Shown one piece after another: positions 697 to 58,891 of a stretch of DNA of 64,000 nt. The position numbers were made by a program, and so were the translations under genes. The stretch comes from an uncultured Pseudomonadales bacterium (GTDB lineage: Bacteria; Patescibacteriota; Microgenomatia; UBA1400; PJMF01): assembly GCA_964404025.1 (NCBI GenBank), contig CAYOIJ010000001.1, forward strand, positions 22,685 through 86,684, in the 5' to 3' direction. The notes beneath the pieces were generated by a model, which was given only the letters and a program-made list of their open reading frames with translations, searched no databases and was not told where the DNA came from. Every line of letters begins with the position of its first letter. Position 1 is the stretch's first letter.

Positions 697-749
697 AAAT
701 TAAGACTCTTTTACTAAGGGTCAAAATCTAGTAAACTTAAACAAGACTC

Positions 750-9400: not shown

Positions 9401-9467
9401 GCTACTTGAGGTTGCAATAATTATGCGCTAATTATGCGTTAATAGTTTTCAACTTTGAGCTTTTTAT

Positions 9468-9896: not shown

Positions 9897-9930
9897 TTGC
9901 TTGGGCTTTAATTTACAATGTTGTTTACAA

Positions 9931-34286: not shown

Positions 34287-34290
34287 AGGG

Positions 34291-34364
34291 TGCGTGTGCT
34301 AGGACTTGAACCTAGAACCGCCAAGGTATAAGCTTGGTGCTCTAACCAATTGAGCTACACACGC
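34291..34364 (-). tRNA. tRNA with anticodon UAU. Ile-type, reading AUA, is inferred from the anticodon and D-arm only. 74 nt, with CC encoded after the discriminator A
   Basis: Hand-folded cloverleaf. Acceptor GCGTGTG/CACACGC is a perfect 7 bp. U8 A9. D-stem GCTC/GAGC with loop AATTGGTTA. Anticodon stem CCAAG/CTTGG with loop C-U-UAU-A-C. Variable loop CGGTT. T-arm CTAGG-TTCAAGT-CCTAG. Discriminator A. Confidence 0.8.
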
Positions 34365-37756: not shown

Positions 37757-38401
37757 TTAAATCATTTTTAACAATTGATACCAAATTATTTGAAAAATTA
37801 AAAAATATTGTTGCCTTAAATTTAAAGAAAGAGTATCTTGTTCAAGTTTTTTCCAAGCTTGTAAGCTTGTGTGCCTTTCATTATCTAGCACCCACAAAGA
37901 AAAAAGACCTGGTTTTACTTGATGTCTCCACAAGCACCAATTAGGATCAATTTTTTTTAAAGCATTAGCTTCATTGACGGGTAGTGGTCTAGGACCGACT
38001 AAAGCCATTTGACCTTTTAAGACGTTAATTAATTGAGGAAGTTCATCAAGTCCGCTATGAGATAAAAACTTGCCAATTTTCAAAAAGCGAGGGTCGTCAC
38101 CAATTTTAAACATTGGTGTTGGGGCATAGTTTAAGTCAACAAGTTGTTGGTGGTTTTTAGAGCGAAGTGATTCAGCATTTTTAACCATAGTGCGTAATTT
38201 ATAAACGGTAAAAGTTTTTTTATATTGGCCCATTCTTTTTTGTTTAAAAATAATGGGACGACCAATTTTCCATAATAAAAATGGCCAAGTGATGATAGAT
38301 ATTGGTAATAAAATTATTATAAGTATTATTACTAAGACTAGGTCAACTGTTCTTTTAGATTGTTTGTTGAAACTAGGATGAAGGAAATTAATTTTTCTCA
38401 T
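37757..38401 (-). CDS. Polyprenyl-phosphate sugar phosphotransferase (Bac_transf / WbaP-PglC-like priming transferase)
   Basis: N-terminal TM. FKQKRMGQYKKTFTVYKLRTM and the diagnostic ALVGPRPL motif. 214 aa. Confidence 0.8.
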   Translation of the reverse strand: MRKINFLHPSFNKQSKRTVDLVLVIILIIILLPISIITWPFLLWKIGRPIIFKQKRMGQYKKTFTVYKLRTMVKNAESLRSKNHQQLVDLNYAPTPMFKIGDDPRFLKIGKFLSHSGLDELPQLINVLKGQMALVGPRPLPVNEANALKKIDPNWCLWRHQVKPGLFSLWVLDNERHTSLQAWKKLEQDTLSLNLRQQYFLIFQIIWYQLLKMI

Positions 38402-38485: not shown

Positions 38486-39331
38486 TTGAATGTTTTAAAA
38501 GGAAATGATTTTTTAGAAAATAGAATGAAATTTAGTAAAAAACAGTGTTATTGGTTAGATTTTTTATCGGCAATGACACAAAAAGAAATTAAAGCACGTT
38601 ATAAACGAGCTACTTTCGGTTTTCTATGGATAATATTAAATCCTCTTTTACAGATGTTGGTCTTGGGTTTTGTTTTTCAGTTTTTTGTTCCAATCCGAGT
38701 TGACAATTATTTTCTATTTTTATTTGCAGGATTGTTGCCTTGGAATTTTTTGTCTCAGAGTTTAACTAAAACAACACCAGCTTTTTTTTATGAAAGAAAT
38801 TTAATTAAAAAAGCTAAATTTCCTAGAGAAGGAATTGTTTTATCAATTATTTTTTCCAACTTTTTTCATTTTTTGGTAGCTTTATCTCTGCTTTTGGTAG
38901 CTTTAATTGGTGATAAATTATTGATTGAAAGTTACGGTTTTGTACAAATAATTTTTTACATGTTAAGAATGTTATGGCTTTTACCGGCGATGTTACTATT
39001 AATAGTTTTTACCACTGGTTTATCCTTAATTACCTCATCTCTTAATGTCAGATTTCGTGACATAAATTTTATTGTTCAATTAACAGTAATGCTGTGGTTT
39101 TATGCCACACCAGTGATTTACACATTAAATTTATTGCCAGAATTTTTGTGGCCGATTTTTTATTTAAATCCGATGACTGCTATAATTGAATTGTTTCATC
39201 ACGCATTGATGGGTCTACCGATTACAATAACCAGCTTTATTTGGATGACGGTTGGAGTAATTTTCTGTTTTTTTTATTTTGGTTTACGAATTTTTAGCAG
39301 AGAAAGTAAAAATTTTGATGATTGGTTGTAA
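38486..39331 (+). CDS. wzm: ABC-2 family polysaccharide export permease (Wzm/TagG-like)
   Basis: Six TM segments. KEIKARYKRATFGFLWIILNPLLQMLVLGFVF signature of ABC-2 permeases. Paired with the following ATPase. Confidence 0.7.
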   Translation: MNVLKGNDFLENRMKFSKKQCYWLDFLSAMTQKEIKARYKRATFGFLWIILNPLLQMLVLGFVFQFFVPIRVDNYFLFLFAGLLPWNFLSQSLTKTTPAFFYERNLIKKAKFPREGIVLSIIFSNFFHFLVALSLLLVALIGDKLLIESYGFVQIIFYMLRMLWLLPAMLLLIVFTTGLSLITSSLNVRFRDINFIVQLTVMLWFYATPVIYTLNLLPEFLWPIFYLNPMTAIIELFHHALMGLPITITSFIWMTVGVIFCFFYFGLRIFSRESKNFDDWL

Positions 39332-39343
39332 TTTTGGAAAAAT

Positions 39344-40054
39344 ATGACTGTTTTACAAGAAAAGACAATAAAAAAACGCAAAGTAAGCAATGAGGTTGCT
39401 ATTTCTTTATCTAATATTGGAAAGAAATATACCATTACTCACGAAAAACCAACTCTTGTAGAGGATGTTAGTAGAATATTACATTTTCAAAAAAAACAAG
39501 AATATTGGGCATTAAAGAACGTTGACTTAAAAATTTATAAAGGGGAAAAAGTTGGCCTTTATGGACCTAATGGAATTGGGAAGACTACGATATTGAAGAT
39601 TATTGCTGGTATTAGTGCTCCTACTGAGGGCAAAATAAAAACTAAAGGACGAACTGTTTCTTTAATAGACTTGGAAGCTGGTTTTCATCCTGATCTAACT
39701 GGACAGGAAAACATCTTTTTAAACGGCTTAATTATTGGTATGGAAAAAAATGAAATAAAAGAAAAATTTAATAAGATTGTTGATTTTGCTGGTATTGGTG
39801 ATTTTATTACCGCACCTTTGTACACCTACTCTAGTGGCATGAAGTTGAGATTGGGTTTTAGTGTGGCAATTCATTCTAATCCGGAAATATTACTTCTTGA
39901 TGAGGTAATCAATGCAGGAGATGAAAAATTTCGAGAAAAAGTTTGGAACGTTTTATTAAAAATGTTTGATGAAGAAATTACAGTGTTGATGGCCAGTCAG
40001 TGGTTGGAGATACTAAACAAACACATGTCGAAGATTATAAGTTTGTCTAAATAA
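39344..40054 (+). CDS. wzt: ABC transporter ATP-binding protein (Wzt/TagH-like, short form without a C-terminal glycan-binding domain)
   Basis: Walker A GLYGPNGIGKTT. Signature YSSGMKLRLGFSVA. Walker B ILLLDE. 236 aa. Confidence 0.85.
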   Translation: MTVLQEKTIKKRKVSNEVAISLSNIGKKYTITHEKPTLVEDVSRILHFQKKQEYWALKNVDLKIYKGEKVGLYGPNGIGKTTILKIIAGISAPTEGKIKTKGRTVSLIDLEAGFHPDLTGQENIFLNGLIIGMEKNEIKEKFNKIVDFAGIGDFITAPLYTYSSGMKLRLGFSVAIHSNPEILLLDEVINAGDEKFREKVWNVLLKMFDEEITVLMASQWLEILNKHMSKIISLSK

Positions 40055-41248: not shown

Positions 41249-42625
41249 ATGAAAACAAAGGTTATTTTTGTTAATCCACCATTTTATAGGTCAGAAAATT
41301 CAAACGCATCCAATAACTTCAAGGTGGATGGACCGAGATTTCACAAGATATATAGGAACATCCCTCAATTATTAAAAATTTGGAATAAATTTAGAGATCC
41401 TACGGTTAGATTTGGTGTAAGAGCTGGGTCTAGATGGCCGTGGACTTGGGATCAGCCCCTAGAACCAATTCACTATCCATTTATGATGGCTTATGCAACT
41501 TCATATTTGATTTCAAAAGGAATAGAATCAAAATTAATTGATTCTATCGCTGAAGAAGACTACTCTTATTCTAACTTTCTCAAAAAAATAAAAAAGGAAA
41601 AAGCAGATATTGTTGTCATGGAAACCTCTATGATTTCTTTGGACATTGATATGTGGTTGGCTAAAAAAATTAGTAGCTTTAGCGAGGTAGGAATAGCTGG
41701 CTCTTATGTAACTTATTATGCTCAAAGTATGCAAAATAAATATCCTTTTATCAGCTATTTGTTGCCAGGAGAATATATAAAATCATCTTTTAAAATGGCA
41801 GTCAAGAAACAAAAGGGTGTTTATAAATCAGAAATTATAAGTGACTTGGATGCATTGCCTTTTCCATACAGAGACTATCCAGAGTCAATAAAGTATTACG
41901 ATCCTACGATGCCAACCCCCAAGCCTCAACTGCAAATTTATGGGAGCAAGGGTTGTCCCTTCAAATGTTCGTTTTGTCTTTGGACTCAAACCATGTATTT
42001 TCATAAGTTCACACTGAGAGACCCTAAGAGAATTGCCGAAGAAATTAAGCATTGTGTAAAAAAATATAAATTTAAAAGTATTTTTTTTGATGATGACACT
42101 TTTAATATTGGCAATGAACGCATAAGTGAATTATGCGACCTATTAAAAGAAATTAATTTACCATGGACGATGATGGGGAGACTAGATTGTTCTCCTGATT
42201 GGTTGATTGACAAAATGGTTGCTTGTGGCTGTGTTGGCATGAGGTTTGGTTTGGAGACTTTTAATAAAAAAGTTAGTAAAAGAGTAGATAAGGGATTGGT
42301 CGATCAGAATCTTTACAAGAAAATAAAAAGATTGAGTGATAAGTATCCTAAATTAATGTTGAGAATATTCATGATGAAAGATTTACCAGGTCAGACAAAT
42401 CAAATGCATCAATCTGATATGAAAAAATTACAAGGTCTAGGATTTAAAGAATTTGGTGATAAATATAGACAAATTCAAGTATCTGTTTGTGCGCCTTTTC
42501 CCGGAACTAAACTGTTTGAAGAAATTAAGGACAAAGTTGATTCTGATAAATTAGACGATTATCGTTTATATGATGGGCACTTAAATACAATAATGAAATA
42601 TTTTAATAAAAATAATTCAAACTAG
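41249..42625 (+). CDS. B12-binding-domain radical SAM enzyme
   Basis: CxxxCxxC cluster YGSKGCPFKCSFCLW. N-terminal roughly 180 aa consistent with a cobalamin-binding Rossmann-like domain (ADIVVMETSM...). 458 aa. Confidence 0.7.
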   Translation: MKTKVIFVNPPFYRSENSNASNNFKVDGPRFHKIYRNIPQLLKIWNKFRDPTVRFGVRAGSRWPWTWDQPLEPIHYPFMMAYATSYLISKGIESKLIDSIAEEDYSYSNFLKKIKKEKADIVVMETSMISLDIDMWLAKKISSFSEVGIAGSYVTYYAQSMQNKYPFISYLLPGEYIKSSFKMAVKKQKGVYKSEIISDLDALPFPYRDYPESIKYYDPTMPTPKPQLQIYGSKGCPFKCSFCLWTQTMYFHKFTLRDPKRIAEEIKHCVKKYKFKSIFFDDDTFNIGNERISELCDLLKEINLPWTMMGRLDCSPDWLIDKMVACGCVGMRFGLETFNKKVSKRVDKGLVDQNLYKKIKRLSDKYPKLMLRIFMMKDLPGQTNQMHQSDMKKLQGLGFKEFGDKYRQIQVSVCAPFPGTKLFEEIKDKVDSDKLDDYRLYDGHLNTIMKYFNKNNSN

Positions 42626-42636
42626 TATTTTCAGTT

Positions 42637-43494
42637 ATGAAAATTTTAATTGTTGGGGCTTCAGGATTTATCGGTTCAGCACTACATTTTTCTTTGGCAA
42701 AAAAAACAAAGGTGATAGGTACTTATTACAAAAACTACGTTCCTGGCACTTATTATTTAGATGCCAATAGTCCTGATAATATAAAAAACTTTTTAAAAAA
42801 ACATACAGATATTGATTTTATTATTTTGAGTCATGGTGTTAAAGATTTAGTAAAGTGTGAAAATGATTATTCGTTGGCTTATCAAAACAACGTTCAACAA
42901 ACAATTAACATTGTTGAATCATTAAAATGCTTTAATAATAAAGCTAGGGTTATATATATATCATCTAATTATGTTTTTGATGGAAAAAAAGGTTTATATA
43001 AAGAGTATGATAAAAAAAATCCAAGAACTATTTACGGCAAGACTAAGTCTTTGGCAGAAGACTATTTAATTAGCCAGGATGTTCCTTGGACAATTATTAG
43101 AACGTCTTCTGTCATAGGTTTAAAAAGTAGTTTTATTAGCTATGTTAAACGGGAGTCTTTGAAAAAGAATAAAATATTTCTCTATAAAAATGTAAACATT
43201 AACCCGACTCCAGCAACAATGTTGATGGATTTTTTTGATTTACTAGTCTTTGATAGTGATTTAAACAGTACTAAAAATCAAATCCTTCATTTTGTAGATA
43301 AAAAAATTGAAAGCAAATATAGCTTTGTTATAAATAACTACAAAGTATTGAGTTTAGAAGTTGAGATAGAGCCAATAATAAGTGAGAGTCCACTTTATTT
43401 TGAGAATTTAACAATGAAGGTTACTGATAAATTTTACTCTCAACTAAGCTCATCTTATGACAAATATTTAAGAGAATCACTAACTGAAAACTAA
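42637..43494 (+). CDS. NAD(P)-dependent sugar-nucleotide reductase, RmlD-like (dTDP-4-dehydrorhamnose reductase family)
   Basis: MKILIVGASGFIGSAL Rossmann motif. YISSNYVFDGKKGLYKEYDKKNPRTIYGKTKSLAE matches the RmlD S.DYVFDG...Y.E.D...P...YG.SK pattern. 285 aa. Confidence 0.6.
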   Translation: MKILIVGASGFIGSALHFSLAKKTKVIGTYYKNYVPGTYYLDANSPDNIKNFLKKHTDIDFIILSHGVKDLVKCENDYSLAYQNNVQQTINIVESLKCFNNKARVIYISSNYVFDGKKGLYKEYDKKNPRTIYGKTKSLAEDYLISQDVPWTIIRTSSVIGLKSSFISYVKRESLKKNKIFLYKNVNINPTPATMLMDFFDLLVFDSDLNSTKNQILHFVDKKIESKYSFVINNYKVLSLEVEIEPIISESPLYFENLTMKVTDKFYSQLSSSYDKYLRESLTEN

Positions 43495-46242: not shown

Positions 46243-47409
46243 ATGGATATAATTTTTTCAACCTATGAGGCTAAAGAAATTGGTGGAAGTTATTTGCGTT
46301 CCTTGTCTTTAGCGCAGGGATTAACTGAGCTAGAACATCAAGTGACTTTGTGGACTAGTGCTAAAAAAATTAGTTTCTTACCAAAAGTAAGTTATGAAAA
46401 GGGTGTAAAGGTTGTAGAATCAATAGGCTTAATGCCTTATCGTTTTCGAAAAGGGGGAAATGACATTTTTGATATTTGTTTTAGAAGTTTGGCTATTTTC
46501 TTTTCAAAATGTGATGTTATTCAAAGTTTTAATCATCGGCCAGCAGCGACTATTCCTGCTTTGATTAAGTCTCGCTTTTTTCCAAAAACAAAGTGGTTTT
46601 TGGATTGGGCTGACCTCTGGGGAAGAGGAGGTATAGCAGATCGTCGTTATGGACCTTTTAGTTTTTTAACAGTGAATTTTGATCATTATACTGAGCGTCT
46701 TTTTATTCGTTTAGCTTTTGCTGTTACAGTAATTAGTGATGATTTAGTTAAAAAAGCTAAATTAATTAGAAAAAAAAAGAACAATGTATTTTTTCTAGGT
46801 GTTGGAGCTAATATTCAAGGCATTAAGACGATGTCTAAATTTCTTGCGAGACGCAAACTGGGTTTGAGTCAAACAAAAAAAATACTAGTTTATTTATATG
46901 TTGGTACTTATGATGAAGAGTTATTGGCTAAAACTTTTATAGAGTTAAACCATTTAAGGAAAGATGTGCTATTAATGTTGTTGGGTCCTCCAATACCAGC
47001 TTTCGAGAAAGAAATAAACGTTCATAAGAGTTTAAACAATAAGGTTATATATCAAGGAGTTGTTGATAGAGATTTGCTAAGTTTATATTTGTCGGCTGGC
47101 GATTTAATGCTTTTACCTTTTGCAGATAAAGAAATTAATAGAGGTAAATTTCCCAATAAACTGGGAGATTATTTGGCAGTTGGCAGACCCACGATTGCTA
47201 ATCCAACCGGCGAAGTTAAGAAATTATTGACTCAGGAAAAAGTTGGAATTTTAGCTCCAGAGACACCAAAAGAGTTTGCTTCTGCGATAAATAAAAGTCT
47301 TAAACAAGTAAGCAAATTAAGACAGCTGGGTAAAAATGCTAGGATATTAGCTGATAAACTATCTTGGCGCACTATTGCTCAAGAGCTTGAAGCTTTTTAC
47401 ATTAAATAG
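46243..47409 (+). CDS. Glycosyltransferase family 1 (GT4-like, GT-B fold)
   Basis: C-terminal LMLLPFADKEINRGKFPNKLGDYLAVGRPTIANPTGEV (E..G.P.KL.EY.A.G.P.I motif). Confidence 0.75.
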   Translation: MDIIFSTYEAKEIGGSYLRSLSLAQGLTELEHQVTLWTSAKKISFLPKVSYEKGVKVVESIGLMPYRFRKGGNDIFDICFRSLAIFFSKCDVIQSFNHRPAATIPALIKSRFFPKTKWFLDWADLWGRGGIADRRYGPFSFLTVNFDHYTERLFIRLAFAVTVISDDLVKKAKLIRKKKNNVFFLGVGANIQGIKTMSKFLARRKLGLSQTKKILVYLYVGTYDEELLAKTFIELNHLRKDVLLMLLGPPIPAFEKEINVHKSLNNKVIYQGVVDRDLLSLYLSAGDLMLLPFADKEINRGKFPNKLGDYLAVGRPTIANPTGEVKKLLTQEKVGILAPETPKEFASAINKSLKQVSKLRQLGKNARILADKLSWRTIAQELEAFYIK

Positions 47410-48222
47410 GTTTTTTCTAAAAAACCAAATATTTTTTTCTTGATTGAAATATATGCTTGGACTTAACTTACATAAGTGAACAAGTTTTGTTATCTGTCTC
47501 CATATAACTTTAATTATTGTTGCTAAGACAATTGGTGTTTTATCGTTTATTTCGGCGTAATATTTTCGGTGTTGATCATTGTTTTTTCGATTAGGATTGA
47601 GTCGATATGAGGCCAAACAGGCATCAACACAATAGAGTTGACTGTGTTGTGCAAATTTTTGCCAAAGCTTCATGTCCATTGAATAAGGCACTTCATCTAA
47701 TTTACCTCCAGTTTTTTCCCATAGTGATCTTCGCCAAAAAGTTCCCTCTTGCATAATAAAACCCAATAGTTTTCTGGTATATAATCCTTTTTTAATTAAA
47801 GACCTTATGTACAGAGGTTTTCTAGCTAAATATATGAGGTGTCCAGTTTCGTTTATGGTAGATGGCAAACTTGTTAGCCAATCTATTTCTGGAAATTTTG
47901 CAAAAATGCTAGCTACTAGCTTGAAGGTGCCTGGTTTAATAATGTCGTCACTATTAATCCAAGCCATAATTTCACCGTTAGTTTGTGCAAAACCCTTGTT
48001 AATGGCATGAGATTGTCCTCGATCTTTTTTGCTCTCAAAATAATCAATTTTTTTTTGATATTTTTTGATAATTTCCAAACTTTGATCACTTGAACCCCCA
48101 TCTATTATTAGATATTCAAAATTGGGATAATCTTGATTTAAAACTGATTGAATTGTTTCTTCAATAAATTCTCCTTGATTGTAAGATGGAGTGACAATAG
48201 AAATTTTAGGCAATTTCTTCAT
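47359..48222 (-). CDS. Glycosyltransferase family 2
   Basis: KISIVTPSYNQGEFIEETIQSVLNQDYPNFEYLIIDGGSSDQSLEII, classic GT2 N-terminus. 287 aa. Confidence 0.85.
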   Translation of the reverse strand: MKKLPKISIVTPSYNQGEFIEETIQSVLNQDYPNFEYLIIDGGSSDQSLEIIKKYQKKIDYFESKKDRGQSHAINKGFAQTNGEIMAWINSDDIIKPGTFKLVASIFAKFPEIDWLTSLPSTINETGHLIYLARKPLYIRSLIKKGLYTRKLLGFIMQEGTFWRRSLWEKTGGKLDEVPYSMDMKLWQKFAQHSQLYCVDACLASYRLNPNRKNNDQHRKYYAEINDKTPIVLATIIKVIWRQITKLVHLCKLSPSIYFNQEKNIWFFRKNLFNVKSFKLLSNSAPR

Positions 48223-48247: not shown

Positions 48248-49114
48248 TCAATTTTCTTCAACTGATATAATTTCACCGAGAACACTTACCTGATCAAAAT
48301 TTAACCACAAGTTTTCACCGACCAACAAGCTTTCCTTTTTACGATAAAAATAATAATCATTAATATTCTCAGCTAATAGATTCACATGTAGATAGACTTG
48401 GGTTCTTTCTGGATCTATGATTTTTACAATACCGCTTGTACTTGTAAGCTCTCTTTCTCCAGGCTTTTTTTCTACCTTAGTGACTTCTACCAAATTGGTA
48501 TTTTCACTATCTTTTACTGTGATACCTTTTTTTAGAAGATCGGCAATGTGATTGTCTATTCCCTTAATCAACACTTGACTGTTATTTACGTAATCAACCT
48601 TTGCTTCATTTTCTTTGATTTTTAAAACCAATTTAAAACTTTTTAAATCTCTTTTCTTTTCAAAAAGATCAATAATTTCTCCACTAATAAGCAAATCTTT
48701 TACTTTAAAAGATCTAACGTCATGTATTAGTAGTGGAATGCCCTCGTAAAGATATTGTTTAGTTACCTTATTTTGAAGAGCCTTAATCTTTAAAGTAACA
48801 TAAACATCATTAAAAACATAAGCATTGGGGTAGCTATAAACATCAGCAATTTCTATCAGAGTTTCACCTAATTGATTTTTTTGTGATTTTCCTGGAATGA
48901 TTTGTTCTACGTACCATGCTTTTGGCTGATTAGTATCAATGTAGTTTTCAGGATATTCATGATTAAAAAGTCTAATGGTGATATATAAGTACTCTGTTTT
49001 TCTACTGAATAAAAAATAAATACTGGCTGTAATAAAGAAGATAGCAAATAGAGCTATTAGATCAAAGATTTTATGTTTATTTTTGTTGTTTTTTTTAAAT
49101 AGTTTTTTTTTCAT
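48248..49114 (-). CDS. Hypothetical N-terminally membrane-anchored protein
   Basis: 288 aa, single N-terminal TM. No recognised family. Confidence 0.35.
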   Translation of the reverse strand: MKKKLFKKNNKNKHKIFDLIALFAIFFITASIYFLFSRKTEYLYITIRLFNHEYPENYIDTNQPKAWYVEQIIPGKSQKNQLGETLIEIADVYSYPNAYVFNDVYVTLKIKALQNKVTKQYLYEGIPLLIHDVRSFKVKDLLISGEIIDLFEKKRDLKSFKLVLKIKENEAKVDYVNNSQVLIKGIDNHIADLLKKGITVKDSENTNLVEVTKVEKKPGERELTSTSGIVKIIDPERTQVYLHVNLLAENINDYYFYRKKESLLVGENLWLNFDQVSVLGEIISVEEN

Positions 49115-50576
49115 AGTGTGTTAATGAGACTCCAATTAGGAATAAAGTATTTAATAAATTTCTTTCTGGATGAAAAAGCATTATTATAAAACTTCCTATT
49201 ATTCCAGAGTATAACATTGTTTTATTGATGCTGCTAATAGCATCCAATTTTATTAGATGTTTTAAAAAGTAATAAAAAAACAATAAATATACTAATAAAC
49301 CAAAAATACCTCTTTCTATCATAAACAGCAAGAAACCCTGATGAACATTCTCTGGAAAGTAGCTAACAACTCCCTTTGGAAAAAGTTGGTAAGCAATGGG
49401 AACAAACATTTGATCGCCAATACCTAGAAATGGACTTTTCTTAAATATTTCCCAAGCTTCTTGATATTGTATTAATCTAGTGCTGAAACCTCCCCAATCA
49501 CTAAAACTATAGATTGAATTAAGTAAGCGACTACTAAATTTGCTAAATAGAAAAAGTGCAATCAATAAAAATAAAAACCTATGGGCCCTACTAGTCTTAG
49601 TTAACTTTTTTTTCCAATTTGAAAATTGATCATTAAAAAATTTTGGGTGTCTGAAACAAACAAATAGAGCGCTGATTATCAAAGCTAAATAAGCGGCTCT
49701 ACTCAAAGAAAGAAATATAACAACTATTGAACCTAAGATTGTCCAATTAACAAAGTCTTTAAAGGGAGCTGCTAGCTTTTTTAAATAAAATTTAATAAAA
49801 GCCAATAAGAATATGTAAATGAGATGTTTATTAGCTAAGCCATTGGGGTGATAGGCTAGGCCGAAAGGTCTAAATCCACCCGAGCCCTCGTCTGCTCCTA
49901 GGCCAAAAATTGGAGCCGTTTTTGTAGTTTCTACGATTAAGCCAATTGGTCGTTTAAATAATACTTGTGCTAAGACAAGAATACTTTCGTAGTTGACTAA
50001 AATGAGCCATATAAATAAAAAAGTAGTGAGCAATCTATAAAACTCTTTTTTATTTAAATTATTTTTTAATAAGATCAAATAATAGGCCCAAATCACTGAT
50101 AAAAAACTATTAAAAACAAAAAAAAGGCTAATTTCTAATAATACGGCCCCATAAATAGCAGATAAAAATCCACTAGCAGCTACAATAATTATTAATTTCT
50201 CATGAATTAACAATTTCACTTTGTTTTTGTATATTCTTTGCCAAAATGGAATTAGAAGTAGAGCAACAGTGGCAATCATTAAGTAAGGAGTAAAAGTCCA
50301 AGATAAGTGTCGACCTTCAAAATATTGATGAACAACTATGGCTTTTGCAGGAACAACTAGAGTCGAATGGGATTGACCTATCCAAAGAGTAGTTAATATA
50401 GGTGCGACATAAATGATTGCTTTACTAAAAGAGTAGCGCCAAGTTAAAAAAAATAAAAATACAAAAGATAGGGCAAAAAAACTTTTTACATTAGGTAACA
50501 GGCTAGTAACTAATAAAAACAGCAAACAGGATAAGACCGCAAGCAAATCAGTTGATTTTTTAATTTTTTGCCACAT
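49095..50576 (-). CDS. Polytopic membrane protein, possible O-antigen polymerase/ligase (Wzy-like)
   Basis: About 11-12 TM helices with a larger loop near the C-terminal third. Context within the glycan locus. Confidence 0.4.
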   Translation of the reverse strand: MWQKIKKSTDLLAVLSCLLFLLVTSLLPNVKSFFALSFVFLFFLTWRYSFSKAIIYVAPILTTLWIGQSHSTLVVPAKAIVVHQYFEGRHLSWTFTPYLMIATVALLLIPFWQRIYKNKVKLLIHEKLIIIVAASGFLSAIYGAVLLEISLFFVFNSFLSVIWAYYLILLKNNLNKKEFYRLLTTFLFIWLILVNYESILVLAQVLFKRPIGLIVETTKTAPIFGLGADEGSGGFRPFGLAYHPNGLANKHLIYIFLLAFIKFYLKKLAAPFKDFVNWTILGSIVVIFLSLSRAAYLALIISALFVCFRHPKFFNDQFSNWKKKLTKTSRAHRFLFLLIALFLFSKFSSRLLNSIYSFSDWGGFSTRLIQYQEAWEIFKKSPFLGIGDQMFVPIAYQLFPKGVVSYFPENVHQGFLLFMIERGIFGLLVYLLFFYYFLKHLIKLDAISSINKTMLYSGIIGSFIIMLFHPERNLLNTLFLIGVSLTHYEKKTI

Positions 50577-51567
50577 AACCTAATAAGTAGTGTCTTTCAA
50601 AGTTTTTAATCAAGCAAGTAGCAAAAATTTTTTTAAAAAAAGAATTACATTCTATATGTTCTTTATATTTTTGATAATCTTTAACAAAATTTTTAATGGC
50701 ACGTAAAAAAAATAATAAGAATAATTGGTTTTTTAGATTAACTAAATTATCGTTGAGTTTCCACTTATCGTTTAAGTATTTGGCTAATTTCCCACGGTGA
50801 AAAGCTCGGCATTTAAATCTAGCAAAAGAATCAGTTTCTTCGTGATAAATTAACATTTTTGGAGTATAAGCTCCTTTAACACATCCTTTTTTAACTTGAA
50901 AATCTAAATCAAAATCAGCTGAATCATAATATAAACTTTGACATTTTTCATCAAATTTTAATTTCTTTTTTTTGAAAAAAGTAGCGTCAAGCAATAGGTT
51001 TTTAGTATCTAATAATTGGCCATTATATTCTTTCCAAAAGTTGTCTCTAGCGTGTTGAGCAATAGCAAAAATATTTTGGGTATTTAATAATTTAGTAATT
51101 CCTAAGACATATTTTGATTTTGTATCAGAGATTGTTTCTAGAGCTTTTTTAAGCCAGTTCTTGTCTGCTACGCAATCATCATCAATAAAGGCTAGATAAG
51201 GACTTTGATTAAATTTCATTGCTTGATTGCGGCAAGCAGGCACAGTTTTTTTGGGTAAATGATGGTACTCAATTTTTAACTTGTTGAACAATTCGTCTTG
51301 GGCGATTGGAAGTGCAGATTGCTTATCATCATTATCCACAATAATGATGGTGAACAATTTAAAACTTTGTTTTTTTAAGCTTAATAAACATCTCTTTAAC
51401 TTGATCGGTCTATTTTTGGTTATGATAGCAATGCTGACTGGTAAGACTGAATTTTTCATTAGAATTGTTATTATAATATAATAAACCAATGCTAAAGAAT
51501 GCTTTAATCTTAATTCCTGATTTATCTGGAGGACAACAAGTTTGTGATTTTGTTTGGCAAACAGCAC
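50560..51567 (-). CDS. Glycosyltransferase family 2
   Basis: VSIAIITKNRPIKLKRCLLSLKKQ...TIIIVDNDDKQS...LAFIDDDCVADKNW. Confidence 0.75.
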   Translation of the reverse strand: MLFAKQNHKLVVLQINQELRLKHSLALVYYIIITILMKNSVLPVSIAIITKNRPIKLKRCLLSLKKQSFKLFTIIIVDNDDKQSALPIAQDELFNKLKIEYHHLPKKTVPACRNQAMKFNQSPYLAFIDDDCVADKNWLKKALETISDTKSKYVLGITKLLNTQNIFAIAQHARDNFWKEYNGQLLDTKNLLLDATFFKKKKLKFDEKCQSLYYDSADFDLDFQVKKGCVKGAYTPKMLIYHEETDSFARFKCRAFHRGKLAKYLNDKWKLNDNLVNLKNQLFLLFFLRAIKNFVKDYQKYKEHIECNSFFKKIFATCLIKNFERHYLLGYVAKN

Positions 51568-52607
51568 TGGGTTTATCTAAAAACAATCAAGTTTATATTA
51601 TTAATTTTAATCAGCAAGAATTTAAGAAAAATAAAAACATAAGGCAGATAAAGCCTTTTAATTGTTTACCATTTAGTAGATTTACTCTTATTAAAAAAAT
51701 AAATCAGCATTTATACAAATTCTTATTAGGACTTTGGTTTTCTTTGAAATTTCCTTTAAAGAGACGTTATCTATGGATCTTTTTTCCTCAATTGGCAGAT
51801 TTATTAAGTTTGAGATTTTTTGCTTTTTCAATTGTTTTTGATATTGTTGACTTTCACTTTTCTTTTGATTCTGATGCTTATCAAAAACTACAAACACAAA
51901 AGAAAAAAATACTGGACAGCGCTGATTATATTTTTTCTATATCAAAAAGTTTAAAAAAATTATATGAAAATGAAACTGATAAAGAAATTCACTTGGTAAA
52001 ACAAGGGTTCGATTATCAAACTTTCAAAAAAAGAGCCAAAAAGAGTGTTAAGGTACCTGGTAGTAAGCCAATTATAGGTTTTGTGGGACAGATAAGCATG
52101 CGTTTAGATTTTTCATTATTAGATGATTTGCTTAAGGATAATCCAAATCTAAACTTTGTTTTTATTGGTCCTTTGCACTATGAGCCCAACGTTAGCCAAG
52201 ATTCAGGCTTATTACTTTTAAAAGAAAAATTTAATCAGCTTTTGACTCATTCAAATTTTTTTCATTATGATAAGCAAGAGAGAAATAAAATTTTATCCTT
52301 TATTGAGACCTTTGATCTTGCAATTATTCCTTATGACGCATCTTTAGTATTCAATCGCTATTGTTATCCAATGAAATTATTCGAATATTTTTATGCTGGT
52401 AAGCCGGTGGTCAGCAGTAATATTAAGGAGCTACAAAAATTTCCTAATTTTGTTAAAATTGCTTATTCACGAGATGATTGGCAAAAGCTGATTTTGCAGT
52501 TACTAAACCAGGATTGGTCAAAAAAACAACAGCAAAAGCAAAGGAAAATAGCTTTAGTAAATTCTTGGGAAAATAAATTGAATGAGATGATGTCTATCAT
52601 CGATTAA
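51489..52607 (+). CDS. Glycosyltransferase family 1-like (GT-B)
   Basis: C-terminal FDLAIIPYDASLVFNRYCYPMKLFEYFYAGKPVVSSNIKEL. Confidence 0.6.
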   Translation: MLKNALILIPDLSGGQQVCDFVWQTALGLSKNNQVYIINFNQQEFKKNKNIRQIKPFNCLPFSRFTLIKKINQHLYKFLLGLWFSLKFPLKRRYLWIFFPQLADLLSLRFFAFSIVFDIVDFHFSFDSDAYQKLQTQKKKILDSADYIFSISKSLKKLYENETDKEIHLVKQGFDYQTFKKRAKKSVKVPGSKPIIGFVGQISMRLDFSLLDDLLKDNPNLNFVFIGPLHYEPNVSQDSGLLLLKEKFNQLLTHSNFFHYDKQERNKILSFIETFDLAIIPYDASLVFNRYCYPMKLFEYFYAGKPVVSSNIKELQKFPNFVKIAYSRDDWQKLILQLLNQDWSKKQQQKQRKIALVNSWENKLNEMMSIID

Positions 52608-52615
52608 AAGATAAA

Positions 52616-53614
52616 ATGAAACATAATAAAAACAAGAAAACTAAAAAAACAAAAATTTTAATTACTGGGGCTGGTGGTTTTATTGGTGGTCATTTAGTTA
52701 ATTATTTTGATCTTCAACAAAATACAGAAATTAGAGCGGTAGATATTAAACCTCTGGCTGAGTGGCAACAAGTTAATAAAAATGCAGAAAATTTAATTTT
52801 CGATCTGAAAGATTTCAAAAATTGCCAAATTGTCAGTGAGGGTATTGACGAAGTTTATAATCTAGCTGCTGATATGGGTGGCATGGGCTTCATTGAAAAC
52901 AATAAGGGCTTGTGTATGCTTAATGTTTTAATTAATACTCATATGTTGATGGCAGCTGCTGATTCTGGAGTAAAAAGATTTTTTTACTCTTCTTCAGCTT
53001 GTATTTATCCTTTAAATAAACAATCCAACAGTAGCGTTATTGAATTAAAAGAGAGTGATGCTTATCCAGCTATGCCAGAAGATGGATATGGTTGGGAAAA
53101 GCTTTTTTCTGAACGAATGTGTCGTCATTTTAGTGAAGATTTTAATTTAGTAACAAGAGTGGCTCGTTTTCACAATGTTTATGGACCTTTTGGTGAGTAT
53201 AAAGGTGGTCGAGAAAAAGCACCGGCTGCTTTATGCAGGAAAGTAATAGAAGCCAAAATTAATAAAAAGAAAGATATCGAAATTTGGGGTGATGGTCAAC
53301 AGACAAGAACCTTTATGTATATGGACGATTGTGTTAAAGGTATTGATTTAATCATGCATAGTGAAATTGATGAGCCAATTAATTTAGGTAGAAGTGAGTT
53401 GGTAACAATCAATGAATTATTGTCAATAATAGAAAAAATTGCTGAAATTAAATTGAATCGTCAATATAACTTAGAAGCTCCGCAAGGGGTTCGTGGTAGA
53501 AGTAGTGATAATACTTTGATTAAAAAACACCTTGATTGGGAACCAGAAGTTGATTTGCACGAGGGTATGAAAAAAACTTATGAATGGATAGAAAAAAAGG
53601 TGATGAACAGATAG
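52616..53614 (+). CDS. GDP-mannose 3,5-epimerase homolog (plant GME-type extended SDR)
   Basis: Near-collinear similarity, recalled by eye, to plant GME. NLAADMGGMGFIENN / RFFYSSSACIYP / ESDAYPAMPEDGYGWEKL (YxxxK) / RFHNVYGPFGEYKGGREKAPAALCRK / IWGDGQQTRTFMYMDDCV / GVRGRSSDNTLIKKHLDWEP. Confidence 0.75.
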   Translation: MKHNKNKKTKKTKILITGAGGFIGGHLVNYFDLQQNTEIRAVDIKPLAEWQQVNKNAENLIFDLKDFKNCQIVSEGIDEVYNLAADMGGMGFIENNKGLCMLNVLINTHMLMAAADSGVKRFFYSSSACIYPLNKQSNSSVIELKESDAYPAMPEDGYGWEKLFSERMCRHFSEDFNLVTRVARFHNVYGPFGEYKGGREKAPAALCRKVIEAKINKKKDIEIWGDGQQTRTFMYMDDCVKGIDLIMHSEIDEPINLGRSELVTINELLSIIEKIAEIKLNRQYNLEAPQGVRGRSSDNTLIKKHLDWEPEVDLHEGMKKTYEWIEKKVMNR

Positions 53615-53635: not shown

Positions 53636-55168
53636 TTAAAGACAATGCGTATATACCCTAGTAAAATCATAATCTGGCCCTTCTTGATACCATAGACAAC
53701 TTTTTTCTGAGTTAATAAAATTTCCTAGCCGGTATAGCCCAATTGACTCATACCAACTTCTCAAGGAATTGTCGTATTCTCCATAAATCCCCCAGTCCAA
53801 CAAATTGTTATAGGGAATTATAACTTTTGTATTATGCATTTTTTCATATTCAACGATACTATTTGCTAAATTATCCTGGTTGCTAATTTTTTCAATATTT
53901 TTTACAGAGATTAGAGAAATATTTGAATTATTTTTGTAATAGTATTCTAATGTTTCTGGATAGGGAGATAGAATGACGTATTGTTGTTGATCTTTTTGTA
54001 TTTTGTTTTGAATACTTTGTGCTGTTGAATAATCGTGACTACAAAAAACATATTGATTGTTTACAGTAAAATTTGGAAGAATTTTCCAAAAATTAATTAT
54101 GCAGATTACTAGCGTGATAACAATTAATATCTTTTTAAAATTGTTTTTTAGATTTTTTACAGCAAGGGTTGTCGATAAAACAAAGCTAAATATCACAGGA
54201 GTAAAATATCTTTCTAAATAAGCAGGAAATAAAGTATGAAAAACTAAAAACAACCCACTAAATAGTAGAGTTGTTTTGATTAAATTATTATTTTTATTTT
54301 TATTAAAATTATATTTTTGTAAAAAAAATATTAATAAATAAAAAATAACACTAATAAAAATAATAATTAAATTTGGCTTGGCATATAAATAATTTTCATT
54401 ATAGAAAAGAGTAAAAGGGAAATTACTTATGAATCTTAATTCTGGAATATCTCCTGATCTTTGAAACAACTCGACTAAAAAAGGAGTATTTAAGAAATTC
54501 CTAGAATAATTTCTAGTCATTAGCACAGTCAATATAACTGTGGCTGGAATAAAAAATACTATAATTTTTTTAATCAAATTTACTAAATTGCGCTTGTTCA
54601 AGAAATCAATAAGAATAAGGCTTATAAATAATAAAATAGATTCATATCTAATTAATATTCCTAAAGCAGTCAAAAAACTAGCTAAAAGAATCTTTTTCTT
54701 CCATACCAAAAAGAAGATAAATAAGCTAAACATGGAGAATAACACTTCAGAATTATTGGAAACTGCAGATTTAAATACTATTGGGTTTGATATTAAAAAT
54801 AATATGGCTAAACCGGCATGCCATATATCTCTATCTTTTTTTAAAATGAAATAAACCAAAAGAATGGCTGCGGTCATAGTAATAGCATTGATTAACAAAG
54901 CGACTTCAATTTCAGTCAAAAAAGCAGATAATACTTTTGAAAAAATGCCAATTAATATCGGGTTTGCAGGTAAAGATTGGATTGTTGGTGGTAATTGAAA
55001 CTTTAAATAAAAGTTGCTATCTCTTAAAAACTGAAAAAAATCTGGATCAACATGACGCTGTGGACCAATTAACTGTACTAAAAAAGCAAAATATATAAAA
55101 ATAATTGTATAAAAAATAATGTTAAATAATTTAACTATTTTTATGTTTTTAGTTTTTTTATTTTGCAT
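53636..55168 (-). CDS. Polytopic membrane protein, GT-C-like (ArnT/PMT-type glycosyltransferase candidate)
   Basis: 510 aa, about 12-13 TM helices. Topology resembles GT-C fold transferases. No definitive motif. Confidence 0.3.
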   Translation of the reverse strand: MQNKKTKNIKIVKLFNIIFYTIIFIYFAFLVQLIGPQRHVDPDFFQFLRDSNFYLKFQLPPTIQSLPANPILIGIFSKVLSAFLTEIEVALLINAITMTAAILLVYFILKKDRDIWHAGLAILFLISNPIVFKSAVSNNSEVLFSMFSLFIFFLVWKKKILLASFLTALGILIRYESILLFISLILIDFLNKRNLVNLIKKIIVFFIPATVILTVLMTRNYSRNFLNTPFLVELFQRSGDIPELRFISNFPFTLFYNENYLYAKPNLIIIFISVIFYLLIFFLQKYNFNKNKNNNLIKTTLLFSGLFLVFHTLFPAYLERYFTPVIFSFVLSTTLAVKNLKNNFKKILIVITLVICIINFWKILPNFTVNNQYVFCSHDYSTAQSIQNKIQKDQQQYVILSPYPETLEYYYKNNSNISLISVKNIEKISNQDNLANSIVEYEKMHNTKVIIPYNNLLDWGIYGEYDNSLRSWYESIGLYRLGNFINSEKSCLWYQEGPDYDFTRVYTHCL

Positions 55169-55169
55169 T

Positions 55170-56669
55170 TTAGTTTTGAAAAACTATGTATTCGATATTT
55201 TGTAATTGAAATTTTAATAAAATTTTTTCTTTGGAAAGATAAGCTGTATTTGTTTGATTGTAATCTGTATTTCGCCAACATAGTAAAACAGTGTTGTTGT
55301 TTTTTAAAGTTATTTGACTATTAAAATCATCAAATAAAAAATAGGGTTCTTCTTTCTGAAAATACCAATACATTCTTGATTCCCAATAAAAATTGTTTAT
55401 GGTGTTTTTGCAAAATTCACCACCATCAATAATGCTTGAATCAGGGAGATATTGATGGATTGTGTCACTCACTTGCAGATGGTGTCGATAAGAAATATTA
55501 CTAGGCATTTTTTCTTGTTCAAAAGATTTGCCACTGATTAAAATAGTTAAGGATAATAATAAAAAAGCTAACTTGTTTTTTTCTAAAGTAATTTTTAAAC
55601 CACAAGCTAGTAAAGCAGCTAAGAAAAAATAAATATTATTTAAATAATGACTCAATGGGTTTTCATGAATATTATAAAAAACATAGTGCAATATTAAGGC
55701 AAAAAGAGAAATAAATGTAAATTTATTTAAATGTTTGTTTTTACTAATCAAACCGATGATAATTATTAGGCTATATATTAAATACATAATAAGTGTTAAT
55801 TTCGGGTGAACCATATTGATTGTTAAATCAACAGTTTTTAAAAAATTTTCAATTCTAAAGTTAGAAAAATTAAGTTGATTGGTGCCAGCGCCAAGTAATT
55901 GTTGGTGTATATCGCTTAAAGCCAGATCTTTTATAATTTGTGAATAAAATATTAAAAAAGAGAGTAAACCACTAATTCCAAAAGTTATTAATTTAAGTAA
56001 ATTTTTTATTTTTAATTGTTTAAAATTAAAACTTAAAACATATATCATTAAATATATTGGCCAGATAAAAATAGCTCCATACCAGAAGCTACTAGCTAGT
56101 GAAAGTAAAGTGGCGCTGATTACTAAATTAATTGTATTGTTGTTTCTAATTGCTGACTGAAAAAACAATAATGATGTAAGAACAATTATTACACTGTTTG
56201 AGGCAGTTGTTTGCACAATGCTAAAATCTATAAATATTGATGAAAGAGCATAAAAAAGGCTTATGATTAGTGCTGGAAGGCTGGAGAATTCCTTTTTAAT
56301 AATTAAGAAAACCAAAACAATACCTAAGGATTGATAAAATATTATTAATCCAGAGATATAGTCGTAGTTTCCTTTAGCGATTAAAGTTAATAGTGCAATG
56401 AAATAGTAATAAATAGAGGGGTAGGTAGAACCAATACCAGTATTCCATGGTCCATATTGAGAACTCATATTTTTAAAAGCAATCAGATATCCGGCTAACA
56501 TATCTCTAGCAACATCACCAAGCCACACACTATTTGTTGAGTAGAGGTATAGCCTAATAAAAAATCCCAAGCAAAATATCAAAATAATTGTCAAAATGTC
56601 AAATTTTTGTTGTTGTTCTTGGTAAGTAGAAATTATTTGTGACAATTTCTTTTTGTTTTTGATTTTCAT
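55170..56669 (-). CDS. Polytopic membrane protein, GT-C-like (ArnT/PMT-type glycosyltransferase candidate)
   Basis: 499 aa. The first extracytoplasmic loop carries an acidic WLGDVARD motif after TM1, reminiscent of the D-containing loop of GT39/GT83 enzymes. About 11 TM helices. Confidence 0.35.
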   Translation of the reverse strand: MKIKNKKKLSQIISTYQEQQQKFDILTIILIFCLGFFIRLYLYSTNSVWLGDVARDMLAGYLIAFKNMSSQYGPWNTGIGSTYPSIYYYFIALLTLIAKGNYDYISGLIIFYQSLGIVLVFLIIKKEFSSLPALIISLFYALSSIFIDFSIVQTTASNSVIIVLTSLLFFQSAIRNNNTINLVISATLLSLASSFWYGAIFIWPIYLMIYVLSFNFKQLKIKNLLKLITFGISGLLSFLIFYSQIIKDLALSDIHQQLLGAGTNQLNFSNFRIENFLKTVDLTINMVHPKLTLIMYLIYSLIIIIGLISKNKHLNKFTFISLFALILHYVFYNIHENPLSHYLNNIYFFLAALLACGLKITLEKNKLAFLLLSLTILISGKSFEQEKMPSNISYRHHLQVSDTIHQYLPDSSIIDGGEFCKNTINNFYWESRMYWYFQKEEPYFLFDDFNSQITLKNNNTVLLCWRNTDYNQTNTAYLSKEKILLKFQLQNIEYIVFQN

Positions 56670-56716: not shown

Positions 56717-58891
56717 ATGAAAGACTTTTTGTTTAAGCTGTTTTATCCGTTTTTTTCAATACTTATTTTATTATCAATTTTTTTAATGGAAACTGAATAT
56801 AAGTTTTATCTATTTGCCTTGTGGTCATGCTTTCTACTATTTTATAGTTTTATGATAGGAGACAAAAAAACCAGATCTTCGACTTCAGACTTGAACCAAA
56901 ATCAGACTTCATTACTAAAGATAAAAAAACCATTTTTGCGCAAAATTCACTTTTTTAGTTTCCTTTTTTTGTTTTTGGCTCTAATCAGTAGTGTTTTTTC
57001 TCATCACAAGCCTCTTTCTTTAGAAAAGTACTTATTTTATTTGGTAGCTATCAGTATTTTTTTGTTTTTTTTACAAATTAAAAAAAAGTTTTTTAAAGCC
57101 AAATTATTTGTTGAATACTTGTTGTTAATTACTTTTATATTAAATATCTTGGTTATTATTTTGAGCTTTGTTAGTAATTCTAGGGAATTTTTTCAAGGTG
57201 TGAATCTGTTAGTTAGGAGTTATGGACACAATCACTATGTAGCTTTTTTACTCTTAGTTTTACCTTTGATCTGGTGGCATTTGTTAGAAGAAACTCCTTC
57301 TTATTTTCTAACGAATAAGGTAAAAGTATTTTTCGATATTTTTTTATTGATTAGTTCTTACTTATTACTATTAATTAGCTTATCTCGTTGGGCTTTATTT
57401 ATTAGTATTATTCAGTTTTTCTTAATTTTTTTATTAGTAAAAAAAGTTTTTTTTAATTTATACAAAAAAAAAGCTGTTTATTTTTTAATTAAGAGCGCGA
57501 TTTTGAGTTTTTTATCTCTTGCTTTAATTTTTTTGTTTTTATCTTTGCCTCTGTCGATCAATGATAAAGAGAATTGTTTTTTGCGCTTGTACGGTAAAGA
57601 TTTATGTACACCAATAGAACAAAATAGCCGTTTTTTTTATTGGCGACAGGCTTGGTTAAGTTTCAAAAATTACCCAATTGTCGGTTATGGTTTAGGTTCT
57701 TTTAAATATGCAGCTCGTCGTTTCCCAATAATTAATCAACAAAATAGTGCTTATGCTCATAATATTTTTTTACACAATTTGGCCGAAATGGGCGTTTTGG
57801 GTGGAGGAAGTTTTATTTTATTTATCATATATATTTTTTATCAATCTGGACTTTTAGTTTTTAAATCAAAAAATCCATTGGCTAAATTTCTATATTTAGC
57901 TGCCATAAGCTCTTCAATCAACGCCATGTTAGATTTTGATTGGCATTTTTTTATTATTTTTTTGTTAACACTCATTTTTTTGGCTTTCATTTTATCTGAC
58001 TTTGCTAAAATTAATGATAACCAAAGACTAAGGAATTCGAAGTCGAGTTTTTTGTTTATATTAGCTTTTTTTACCTTTATATTGGTTGTTGCTGATATTT
58101 TAACTGTTAGTTGGCAATCAAAAAAACCAGAATATTGGTTAAAATTTACTCCGTTTTTAAATTTTGCTGCTAATGCAACGCTCGAGGAGTCAGTAATCAA
58201 TGTTAGTAATTATGAAAGTTTGTACAACTGGTATCGTTATGATACAGGATTTATAAATCGCTTCTTAAATTTAGAAGAACTAGACGATGAGCGTGAGAAA
58301 CAGCTGTATTTAGATTTAGCTGAGATAGATCCAGTAAGTTTTATGGCCAAAATTCATTTTAAAGATAGATCTTTAGAAGAAGCTGAGATTTTATTGAAAG
58401 AATTATTAAGAATTATAGATAGTTATCAGGCATTTAATGACTATTATTTTATTAGTTATCAGCAGCGAATTGATTTGGCTGAACAAATTTATAGTTTAGG
58501 ACAAAACGCTTATTTACAAAGTGATTGGTCAAGGGCTAGCTATTTTTATCAATCAGCGCATTTTTTTGATCCTTATATTTTCTTTAACGAACGAGCAATC
58601 TTTTTAGATGAAGACAACTTAGATCGACTTTCATTATTTTTTTTAAATTTTCAAGATTTTTCACCACATGAGAGTGGAGATTATTATCATTATCTATTTT
58701 TATATAGACAGGTGATAACTAAGCTTTTTGAAGATAATCAGTTGTTAGAATTTAAGCAGTTAGTAGGGGCAATGCTTGATCAGGAGCCAGAGTCAAAAGA
58801 TTATCTAACTAATCATTTACAAGAATTAGTGATCAGTGAAGAGCAAGCACAAGCTCTTATTTATGTTGAAGAAAATTATAAATCTAATTAA
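56717..58891 (+). CDS. O-antigen ligase (Wzy_C) domain membrane protein fused to a C-terminal soluble helical/TPR-like domain
   Basis: TM-rich N-terminal half with the Wzy_C signature IVGYGLGSFKYAARRF...AHNIFLHNLAEMGVLGG. A roughly 270-aa C-terminal soluble domain rich in Y/F/L/E/D. Confidence 0.6.
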   Translation: MKDFLFKLFYPFFSILILLSIFLMETEYKFYLFALWSCFLLFYSFMIGDKKTRSSTSDLNQNQTSLLKIKKPFLRKIHFFSFLFLFLALISSVFSHHKPLSLEKYLFYLVAISIFLFFLQIKKKFFKAKLFVEYLLLITFILNILVIILSFVSNSREFFQGVNLLVRSYGHNHYVAFLLLVLPLIWWHLLEETPSYFLTNKVKVFFDIFLLISSYLLLLISLSRWALFISIIQFFLIFLLVKKVFFNLYKKKAVYFLIKSAILSFLSLALIFLFLSLPLSINDKENCFLRLYGKDLCTPIEQNSRFFYWRQAWLSFKNYPIVGYGLGSFKYAARRFPIINQQNSAYAHNIFLHNLAEMGVLGGGSFILFIIYIFYQSGLLVFKSKNPLAKFLYLAAISSSINAMLDFDWHFFIIFLLTLIFLAFILSDFAKINDNQRLRNSKSSFLFILAFFTFILVVADILTVSWQSKKPEYWLKFTPFLNFAANATLEESVINVSNYESLYNWYRYDTGFINRFLNLEELDDEREKQLYLDLAEIDPVSFMAKIHFKDRSLEEAEILLKELLRIIDSYQAFNDYYFISYQQRIDLAEQIYSLGQNAYLQSDWSRASYFYQSAHFFDPYIFFNERAIFLDEDNLDRLSLFFLNFQDFSPHESGDYYHYLFLYRQVITKLFEDNQLLEFKQLVGAMLDQEPESKDYLTNHLQELVISEEQAQALIYVEENYKSN

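Follow-up and report, generated by a model that had tools for sequence, protein, structure and literature searches.

A predicted GDP-mannose 3,5-epimerase within the surface-glycan locus of a Pacebacteria-like Patescibacterium

The gene that we assign to a GDP-mannose 3,5-epimerase (GME or GM35E) lies inside a glycan locus, recognised with Pfam and NCBIfam, which spans about 37.7 to 58.9 kb of the window, that is, of the whole 64-kb stretch of DNA analysed here (Table 1). Together, an initiating phosphoglycosyl transferase, the Wzm/Wzt pair, five GT2/GT4-type genes, two Wzy_C genes and two GT-C genes make up the surroundings of GME, and its position in a glycan locus, claimed earlier from the sequence alone, was thus borne out. 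Directly upstream of GME stands the glycosyltransferase gene GT4_372, whose stop codon precedes the GME start by 8 nt on the same strand, so the two genes are probably co-transcribed. The pair has minus-strand genes on both sides, and a scan for promoters and terminators around it gave results no better than those from shuffled sequence. As a mechanical ORF, the GT2 gene on the upstream side overlaps the start of the divergent GT4_372 by 79 nt; the public gene call (L001) makes this GT2 299 aa long with its end at 51459, which leaves a gap of about 30 nt.

Table 1. Genes of the glycan locus, and residues of the predicted GME with their counterparts in the A. thaliana enzyme (AtGME); positions are those of the window.
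Feature	Position	Strand	Basis or remark
Polyprenyl-phosphate sugar-phosphate transferase, locus start	37757-38401	-	Pfam Bac_transf; NCBIfam EPS_sugtrans
ABC-2 permease Wzm	38486-39331	+	Pfam ABC2_membrane
ATPase Wzt	39344-40054	+	Pfam ABC_tran
GT4 glycosyltransferase (GT4_388)	46243-47409	+	Pfam; conserved block
GT2 glycosyltransferase (GT2_287)	47359-48222	-	Pfam; conserved block
Unknown protein, 288 aa	48248-49114	-	Conserved block
Wzy_C membrane protein	49095-50576	-	Pfam; conserved block
GT2 glycosyltransferase	50560..51567	-	Pfam; mechanical ORF with GTG start, 335 aa
GT4 glycosyltransferase (GT4_372), 372 aa, TuaH-like	51489..52607	+	Pfam Glycos_transf_1; NCBIfam TuaH 106 bits, below cut-off
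Predicted GME (GM35E)	52616..53614	+	ORF with ATG start, 332 aa plus stop codon
NAD+-binding GxxGxxG, G18-A-G-G-F-I-G24	52667..52687	+	Aligned to AtGME G34..A40
Ser127 (triad) and Cys129 (catalytic acid/base) in FYSSSACIYP	52994..53002	+	AtGME S143 and C145; roles from PMC8787198
Tyr158-x3-Lys162, SDR catalytic motif	53087..53101	+	AtGME Y174 and K178
Asn187, conserved 'orange wall' Asn	53174..53176	+	AtGME N203
Lys201, predicted base of the Cys/Lys pair (His in GDP-fucose synthase)	53216..53218	+	AtGME K217
Arg231, predicted diphosphate contact	53306..53308	+	AtGME R243
[quoted passage not shown]
Two tandem GT-C-type (PMT_2-like) membrane glycosyltransferases, convergent with GME	53636..56669	-	Pfam PMT_2, weak
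Second Wzy_C (O-antigen ligase/polymerase-like) membrane protein, locus end, PGK next	56717..58891	+	Pfam

Elsewhere in the locus, the plus strand at 41249-43494 encodes a radical SAM protein of the B12-binding type, which resembles HpnJ at a score below the cut-off, and immediately after it an RmlD-like reductase; none of RmlA, RmlB and RmlC was found in the 64-kb window. This pair suggests an additional, unusual sugar modification.

The window as a whole is an origin-proximal piece of chromosome (DnaA at 4144-5652, DnaN, YidC, LeuRS and UppS; GC 33%). Named relatives of DnaA belong to Patescibacteria (88% identity) and Candidatus Pacebacteria (56-65%), which identifies the host as a Pacebacteria-like CPR bacterium, of an ultrasmall kind. 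Directly upstream of dnaA, at 750-4039 (+), a TraC-like protein and a 731-aa TraG/VirB4-type P-loop ATPase are encoded, so that components of a type IV secretion or conjugation-like kind sit beside replication origin genes. Among the housekeeping genes we also observed a 1,010-aa protein with a DUF4012 domain (9901-12933, +) and a Fic/DOC-domain protein (24956-26068, +). A 608-aa ATP-dependent DNA ligase (26133-27959, +) has the three-domain archaeal/eukaryotic architecture (DNA_ligase_A_N/M/C) on what is a bacterial chromosome. The sole tRNA in the 64 kb, detected with the Rfam tRNA model at 34289-34364 (-), is a tRNA-Ile with the anticodon TAT (UAU). Such a tRNA is uncommon for reading AUA in bacteria, most of which use a lysidine-modified CAU tRNA.

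Against all PDB chains (phmmer), the 332-residue product of the GME gene matched A. thaliana GDP-mannose 3,5-epimerase best (2c59; E = 4.1e-94, 319 bits), and Myrciaria dubia GME (8sg0) and the mutants of 2c59 matched likewise (E about 1e-93 to 4e-94). Residues 10-329 aligned with residues 28-342 of the 2c59 chain, collinearly over about 96% of the protein with three short gaps, and 148 of the 314 aligned columns, counted from the HMMER alignment, were identical (47%). This confirmed the collinearity with plant GME over nearly the full length that the sequence-only reading had reported, and each of the GME motifs that it quoted is present in the ORF (AADMGGMGFI, FYSSSACIYP, YGPFGEYKGGREKAPAALCRK, WGDGQQTRTF and GVRGRSSDNTLIK). 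That reading had also considered that the best match might turn out to be a generic UDP-glucose 4-epimerase (GalE). It did not: an enzyme of this type, from Thermotoga, was only the first PDB match outside GME, at E = 9.5e-27 and 98 bits, and UDP-xylose synthases and GDP-fucose synthases trailed as well (E = 1e-26 to 1e-22). With 319 bits for GME against 98 for the next class, the likeness singles out GME and lies far outside what chance would give.

The family libraries are less specific. The Pfam Epimerase model covers residues 14-258 (E = 2e-41), but Pfam gives only the generic Epimerase/GDP_Man_Dehyd SDR families, and no NCBIfam model scored above its cut-off, the best being GDP-L-fucose synthase. 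These libraries alone would therefore leave the protein as a "NAD-dependent epimerase/dehydratase". An AlphaFold model of moderate quality built from a 12-sequence alignment (pLDDT 75.8, pTM 0.79, with low pLDDT in the active-site loops) has the SDR fold. Used as a Foldseek query, it matched plant GMEs best (E about 2e-33, TM 0.78), and GalE-type enzymes came after them (6e-25); with an rmsd of about 8 Å to GME structures, the model served for this ranking of folds only and not for active-site geometry, and it contributes little that the sequence had not already shown.

The residues that define GM35E have been established for AtGME, and comprise the triad S143/Y174/K178, the acid-base pair C145/K217, and R306, R243 and N203 (PMC6678494, PMC8787198). 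At the position of K217, GDP-L-fucose synthase (GMER) has a His, and the Cys/Lys pair is absent in GalE (PMC8787198). R306, which acidifies the catalytic Cys, is a Lys in GMER (PMC6678494, PMC8787198). When the window GME was mapped to AtGME through the HMMER alignment with 2c59, all eight residues and the glycine motif were found in place (Table 1). They are invariant in a 12-sequence alignment of the window GME with eleven homologs, G18, G20, G21 and G24 among them, and the same set is near-universal among 117 members of the clade. The catalytic Cys and Lys, for which the sequence-only reading had proposed to look, are both present as Cys129 and Lys201. By these residues the active site is intact, and the identity of the protein as a GM35E is well supported and, in our estimate, probable.

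Enzymes of the GM35E family begin with a Tyr-assisted hydride transfer to bound NAD+, which yields a GDP-4-keto sugar; a Cys and a Lys then act at C5 and C3, and the sugar is reduced again. Their products are GDP-L-Gal (the main one), GDP-L-Gul and minor GDP-D-Alt. In the same manner, the window GME, an extended short-chain dehydrogenase (CEP1 / extended SDR), would hold a tightly bound NAD+, and its Tyr158, Lys162 and Ser127 would oxidise GDP-D-mannose at C4. Cys129 and Lys201, acting as an acid/base pair, would invert C5 and C3 by de- and reprotonation, with Arg295 lowering the pKa of the Cys, and renewed reduction at C4 would give an equilibrium mix of GDP-L-galactose (main), GDP-L-gulose and minor GDP-D-altrose. 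The surrounding locus would build a polysaccharide or glycoconjugate on undecaprenyl phosphate, and one of its glycosyltransferases, for which the adjacent GT4_372 is the nearest candidate, would use one GDP-L-hexose. The surface glycan of this Pacebacteria-like Patescibacterium would then carry L-galactose or L-gulose. Our best explanation, which on sequence comparison we consider likely, is that the protein is a functional bacterial GM35E, that its GDP-L-hexose feeds the surrounding glycan locus, and that the gene is old in the lineage. In itself, it would then be an ordinary bacterial GM35E that makes activated L-galactose or L-gulose. That an L-hexose occurs in the surface glycan is a plausible and reasonable expectation, and stops short of a demonstration.

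The chemistry could be the same and the sugar drawn off a different one. In that case the cell would use GDP-L-gulose (the C5 epimer) or GDP-D-altrose instead of GDP-L-galactose, as in the proposal made for BlmG in bleomycin synthesis. At equilibrium GM35E yields a mixture of all three, from which the transferase acting next selects the sugar that is used; in the locus, no transferase has an assignable donor, and a sequence search found no relative of the adjacent GT4_372 in the PDB. Nothing here discriminates among the products, but GDP-L-galactose is the main one for all characterised GM35Es, and we regard use of GDP-L-gulose or GDP-D-altrose as rather unlikely.

It is improbable that the epimerase, although of GME fold, acts on another nucleotide sugar (a modified GDP-hexose or GDP-heptose, or a non-GDP sugar), in which event the locus would be without L-Gal and L-Gul. 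Genes of the GDP-mannose pathway are not visible in the window: neither ManC (mannose-1-phosphate guanylyltransferase) nor ManB/phosphomannomutase nor PMI was found in the 64 kb or, in five related loci, up to 10 kb from GME. Their absence from these regions also counts against our best explanation, in which a supply of GDP-mannose is presumed. A gene for a cytidylyltransferase-like protein of ~378 aa often follows GME in other phyla, which hints at a nucleotide-sugar context that may differ within the clade. However, the window encodes no homolog of this protein. Arg231 and Asn187 are the same in AtGME, as is every residue of the catalytic set, and at 47% identity over the full length conservation of the substrate is the usual expectation.

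The generic Pfam families (Epimerase, GDP_Man_Dehyd) and the GDP-L-fucose synthase model that tops the NCBIfam matches are what could be expected of a UDP-hexose 4-epimerase or a GMER that merely resembles GME, but the NCBIfam scores are far under their cut-offs (117.4 vs. 500 for Fcl, NF047922; 82.7 vs. 262.3 for GalE, TIGR01179), GalE is without the Cys/Lys pair formed here by Cys129 and Lys201, the positions of Lys201 and Arg295 are taken by His and Lys in GMER, no PDB match scores above 98 bits for GalE or above 84 for GMER while GME reaches 319, and a GDP-mannose 4,6-dehydratase is absent from the 64-kb window. By residues and by scores the protein belongs to neither family; both identities were excluded, and we assign them a negligible probability.

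Returning to the protein as a bacterial GM35E, we found relatives of it in great number. A large protein collection returned thousands of matches, the best 120 of which are 65-98% identical to the window GME and include proteins named as from Patescibacteria, Pacebacteria, Woesebacteria, Acidobacteriaceae and Aminicenantes; several of these 120, the 98% match included, already carry the name "GDP-D-mannose 3',5'-epimerase" from JGI. A pattern scan over one genome per GTDB species gave at least 584 confirmed relatives. Among the best 80 of these species representatives, GME is 60-67% identical and is spread over more than ten phyla (Acidobacteriota, Planctomycetota, Bacteroidota, Verrucomicrobiota, Cyanobacteria, Alpha-proteobacteria, Actinomycetota, Chloroflexota, Ignavibacteriota, Gemmatimonadota, Chlamydiota and Patescibacteria). 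Finally, an exhaustive HMMER search of 1.84 billion representatives yielded 1,056 clusters at 50% identity (E ≤ 1e-30), and its top 150 matches all exceeded 240 bits. In nine proteins of 535-845 aa, a full GME-like domain is fused to extra N- or C-terminal domains (P0127, P0130, P0133, P0136, P0138, P0155, P0171, P0201 and P0221).

The closest relatives of the window GME are Patescibacteria proteins (70-98% identity). A neighbour-joining tree, which took in AtGME but not Methylacidiphilum MfGM35E, set the window GME in a Patescibacteria sub-clade of a tightly conserved bacterial clade, with AtGME on a separate branch. Given the wide distribution and this tree, the framing of the sequence-only reading, in which bacterial GMEs were sporadic, plant-type and a sign of horizontal acquisition, is not supported. 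That a plant or an alga recently donated the gene, or that it is foreign and sporadic in some other way, might be read from the GC content of the glycan-locus genes (25-34% across 38000-58900), which is below the 36-38% of the housekeeping genes on either side; exchangeable glycan islands commonly show such a difference. GME itself, with 32.7% GC, equals the window mean of 32.9%; its identity is 70-98% to Patescibacteria and 60-67% to other bacterial phyla, against 47% to plants; and, besides the placement in the tree, its synteny is kept in three relatives. On these four grounds (identity pattern, tree, synteny and GC) the plant origin was rejected, and a foreign origin of this kind is scarcely credible.

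Exact copies of the GME protein occur on two other metagenome contigs, where the neighbours are identical. Beyond these, GT4_388, GT2_287, the unknown 288-aa protein and Wzy_C also stand next to GME in the loci L087, L003-L005 (named Ca. Pacebacteria by NCBI) and L089/L090, at 38-73% identity in tblastn; GME itself is 79%, 74% and 75% identical to that of the window in the three, respectively. A homolog of the first downstream GT-C is kept in L087 and L003, and L087 also keeps the second GT-C and the second Wzy_C, its GT-C homologs at this position being 58-60% identical. Since the block is kept in three related Patescibacteria genomes, GME is a stable component of the cluster. As part of our best explanation, it is likely that GME has long belonged to this cluster in the lineage and is no recent import.

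The adjacency of GT4_372 and GME, by contrast with their spacing in the window, is not kept. The 20 kb covered of L087, the syntenic relative closest to the window, contain no homolog of GT4_372, and in L003, L089 and L091 the homolog is located elsewhere, not beside GME. Because the pairing is not conserved, we downgraded GT4_372 as the L-hexosyltransferase to a candidate. The gene that abuts GME in L003 (6607-7341), L089 (9141-9884) and L091 (9258-10004) is of the WecG/GT26 type, and in L091 the two genes share 4 nt at the start of GME. A WecG/TagA-family GT26 is also the commonest immediate neighbour of bacterial GME (L009, L012 and about 30 other loci in Acidobacteriota and Patescibacteria). 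Such a protein is a candidate GDP-L-hexose transferase; its gene is absent from the window.

Other neighbours recur outside the window. The ~378-aa conserved protein mentioned above lies 3' of GME on the same strand in Bacteroidales, Ignavibacteriota and Sedimentisphaerales (L013, L024, L035, L038, L042, L048, L050, L051, L057, L058, L068, L076 and L082; at about 9000-10200 in most), and has a cytidylyltransferase-like domain (PF01467) at its N-terminus, while the C-terminal ~250 aa carry no annotation. In the related Patescibacteria clusters of L003 and L089, an RGP-family protein (PF03214, the plant 'reversibly glycosylated polypeptide'/UDP-arabinose mutase family) is encoded at 41-1024 (-) and 2411-3529 (+), respectively, and UDP-galactopyranose mutase (GLF) and carbamoyltransferases are present too. 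These three kinds of protein hint at furanose and carbamoylated sugars in the glycans of related Patescibacteria.

A literature search for work linking GME to Patescibacteria or CPR bacteria returned nothing relevant. Bacterial GM35E itself is already known; the gene described here adds a member, from a little-studied phylum, to an enzyme family that is known and widespread. Far from being a plant-like rarity, bacterial GME is a large family of high conservation, which generic annotation pipelines often label only "NAD-dependent epimerase/dehydratase". For this uncultivated, episymbiotic lineage, about whose surface chemistry next to nothing is known, our results predict an envelope glycan with L-galactose or L-gulose. 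Tentatively, and with somewhat less than even confidence, we propose that Pacebacteria-like Patescibacteria have a lineage-conserved L-Gal or L-Gul surface glycan or glycoconjugate, made by GME together with the GT4-GT2-unknown-Wzy_C block and GT-C, and that the pan-bacterial GME clade, often accompanied by WecG/GT26 or the cytidylyltransferase-like protein, could mark an overlooked and widespread L-hexose modification of the envelope. The practical value is modest: the enzyme is a candidate for GDP-L-sugar biocatalysis, and its gene a possible marker for L-hexose glycans in CPR bacteria.

The characterised plant enzymes, AtGM35E (2c59/2c54/2c5a/2c5e) and Myrciaria dubia GME (8sg0), share with the window GME a collinear extended-SDR architecture at 47% identity and an identical catalytic set (S/C/Y/K/N/K/R/R), and are its best structural neighbours. 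However, the window GME lacks the stretches by which the plant protein is longer at the N-terminus (about 25 aa) and the C-terminus (about 37 aa). It has GxxGxxG where AtGME has GxxGxxA, belongs to another clade, and lies in a bacterial glycan locus instead of serving plant ascorbate and cell-wall metabolism. The only biochemically characterised bacterial GM35E, MfGM35E from Methylacidiphilum fumariolicum, was described with demonstrated activity in 2019 (PMC6678494). Like the window GME, it is ~330 aa long, lacks the extensions of the plant enzymes and has the conserved Ser, Cys, Lys, Arg and GxxGxxG, and its gene also lies beside glycosyltransferase genes, with a proposed role in the synthesis of LPS or an envelope glycan (PMC6678494). 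Its host is a Verrucomicrobiota thermoacidophile and thus of a different phylum, and the two proteins were compared by description.

In the bleomycin cluster, BlmG, which is 42% identical to AtGME, has been proposed to epimerise NDP-mannose to NDP-L-gulose (PMC6678494). BlmG and the GM35E of the A201A pathway are, like the window GME, bacterial GME homologs, and both supply an L-hexose to a glycosyltransferase. They do so in Actinomycete secondary-metabolite glycosylation, whereas the window gene lies in a surface-glycan locus with Wzm/Wzt, Wzy_C and GT-C. Finally, GMER (Fcl/WcaG) shares the SDR fold, the C3,C5 double epimerisation of a GDP-4-keto sugar and the Cys acid. In contrast to the window GME with its Lys201 and Arg295, GMER uses a His base and a Lys to acidify the Cys, takes its 4-keto-6-deoxy substrate from GMD, and consumes NADPH.
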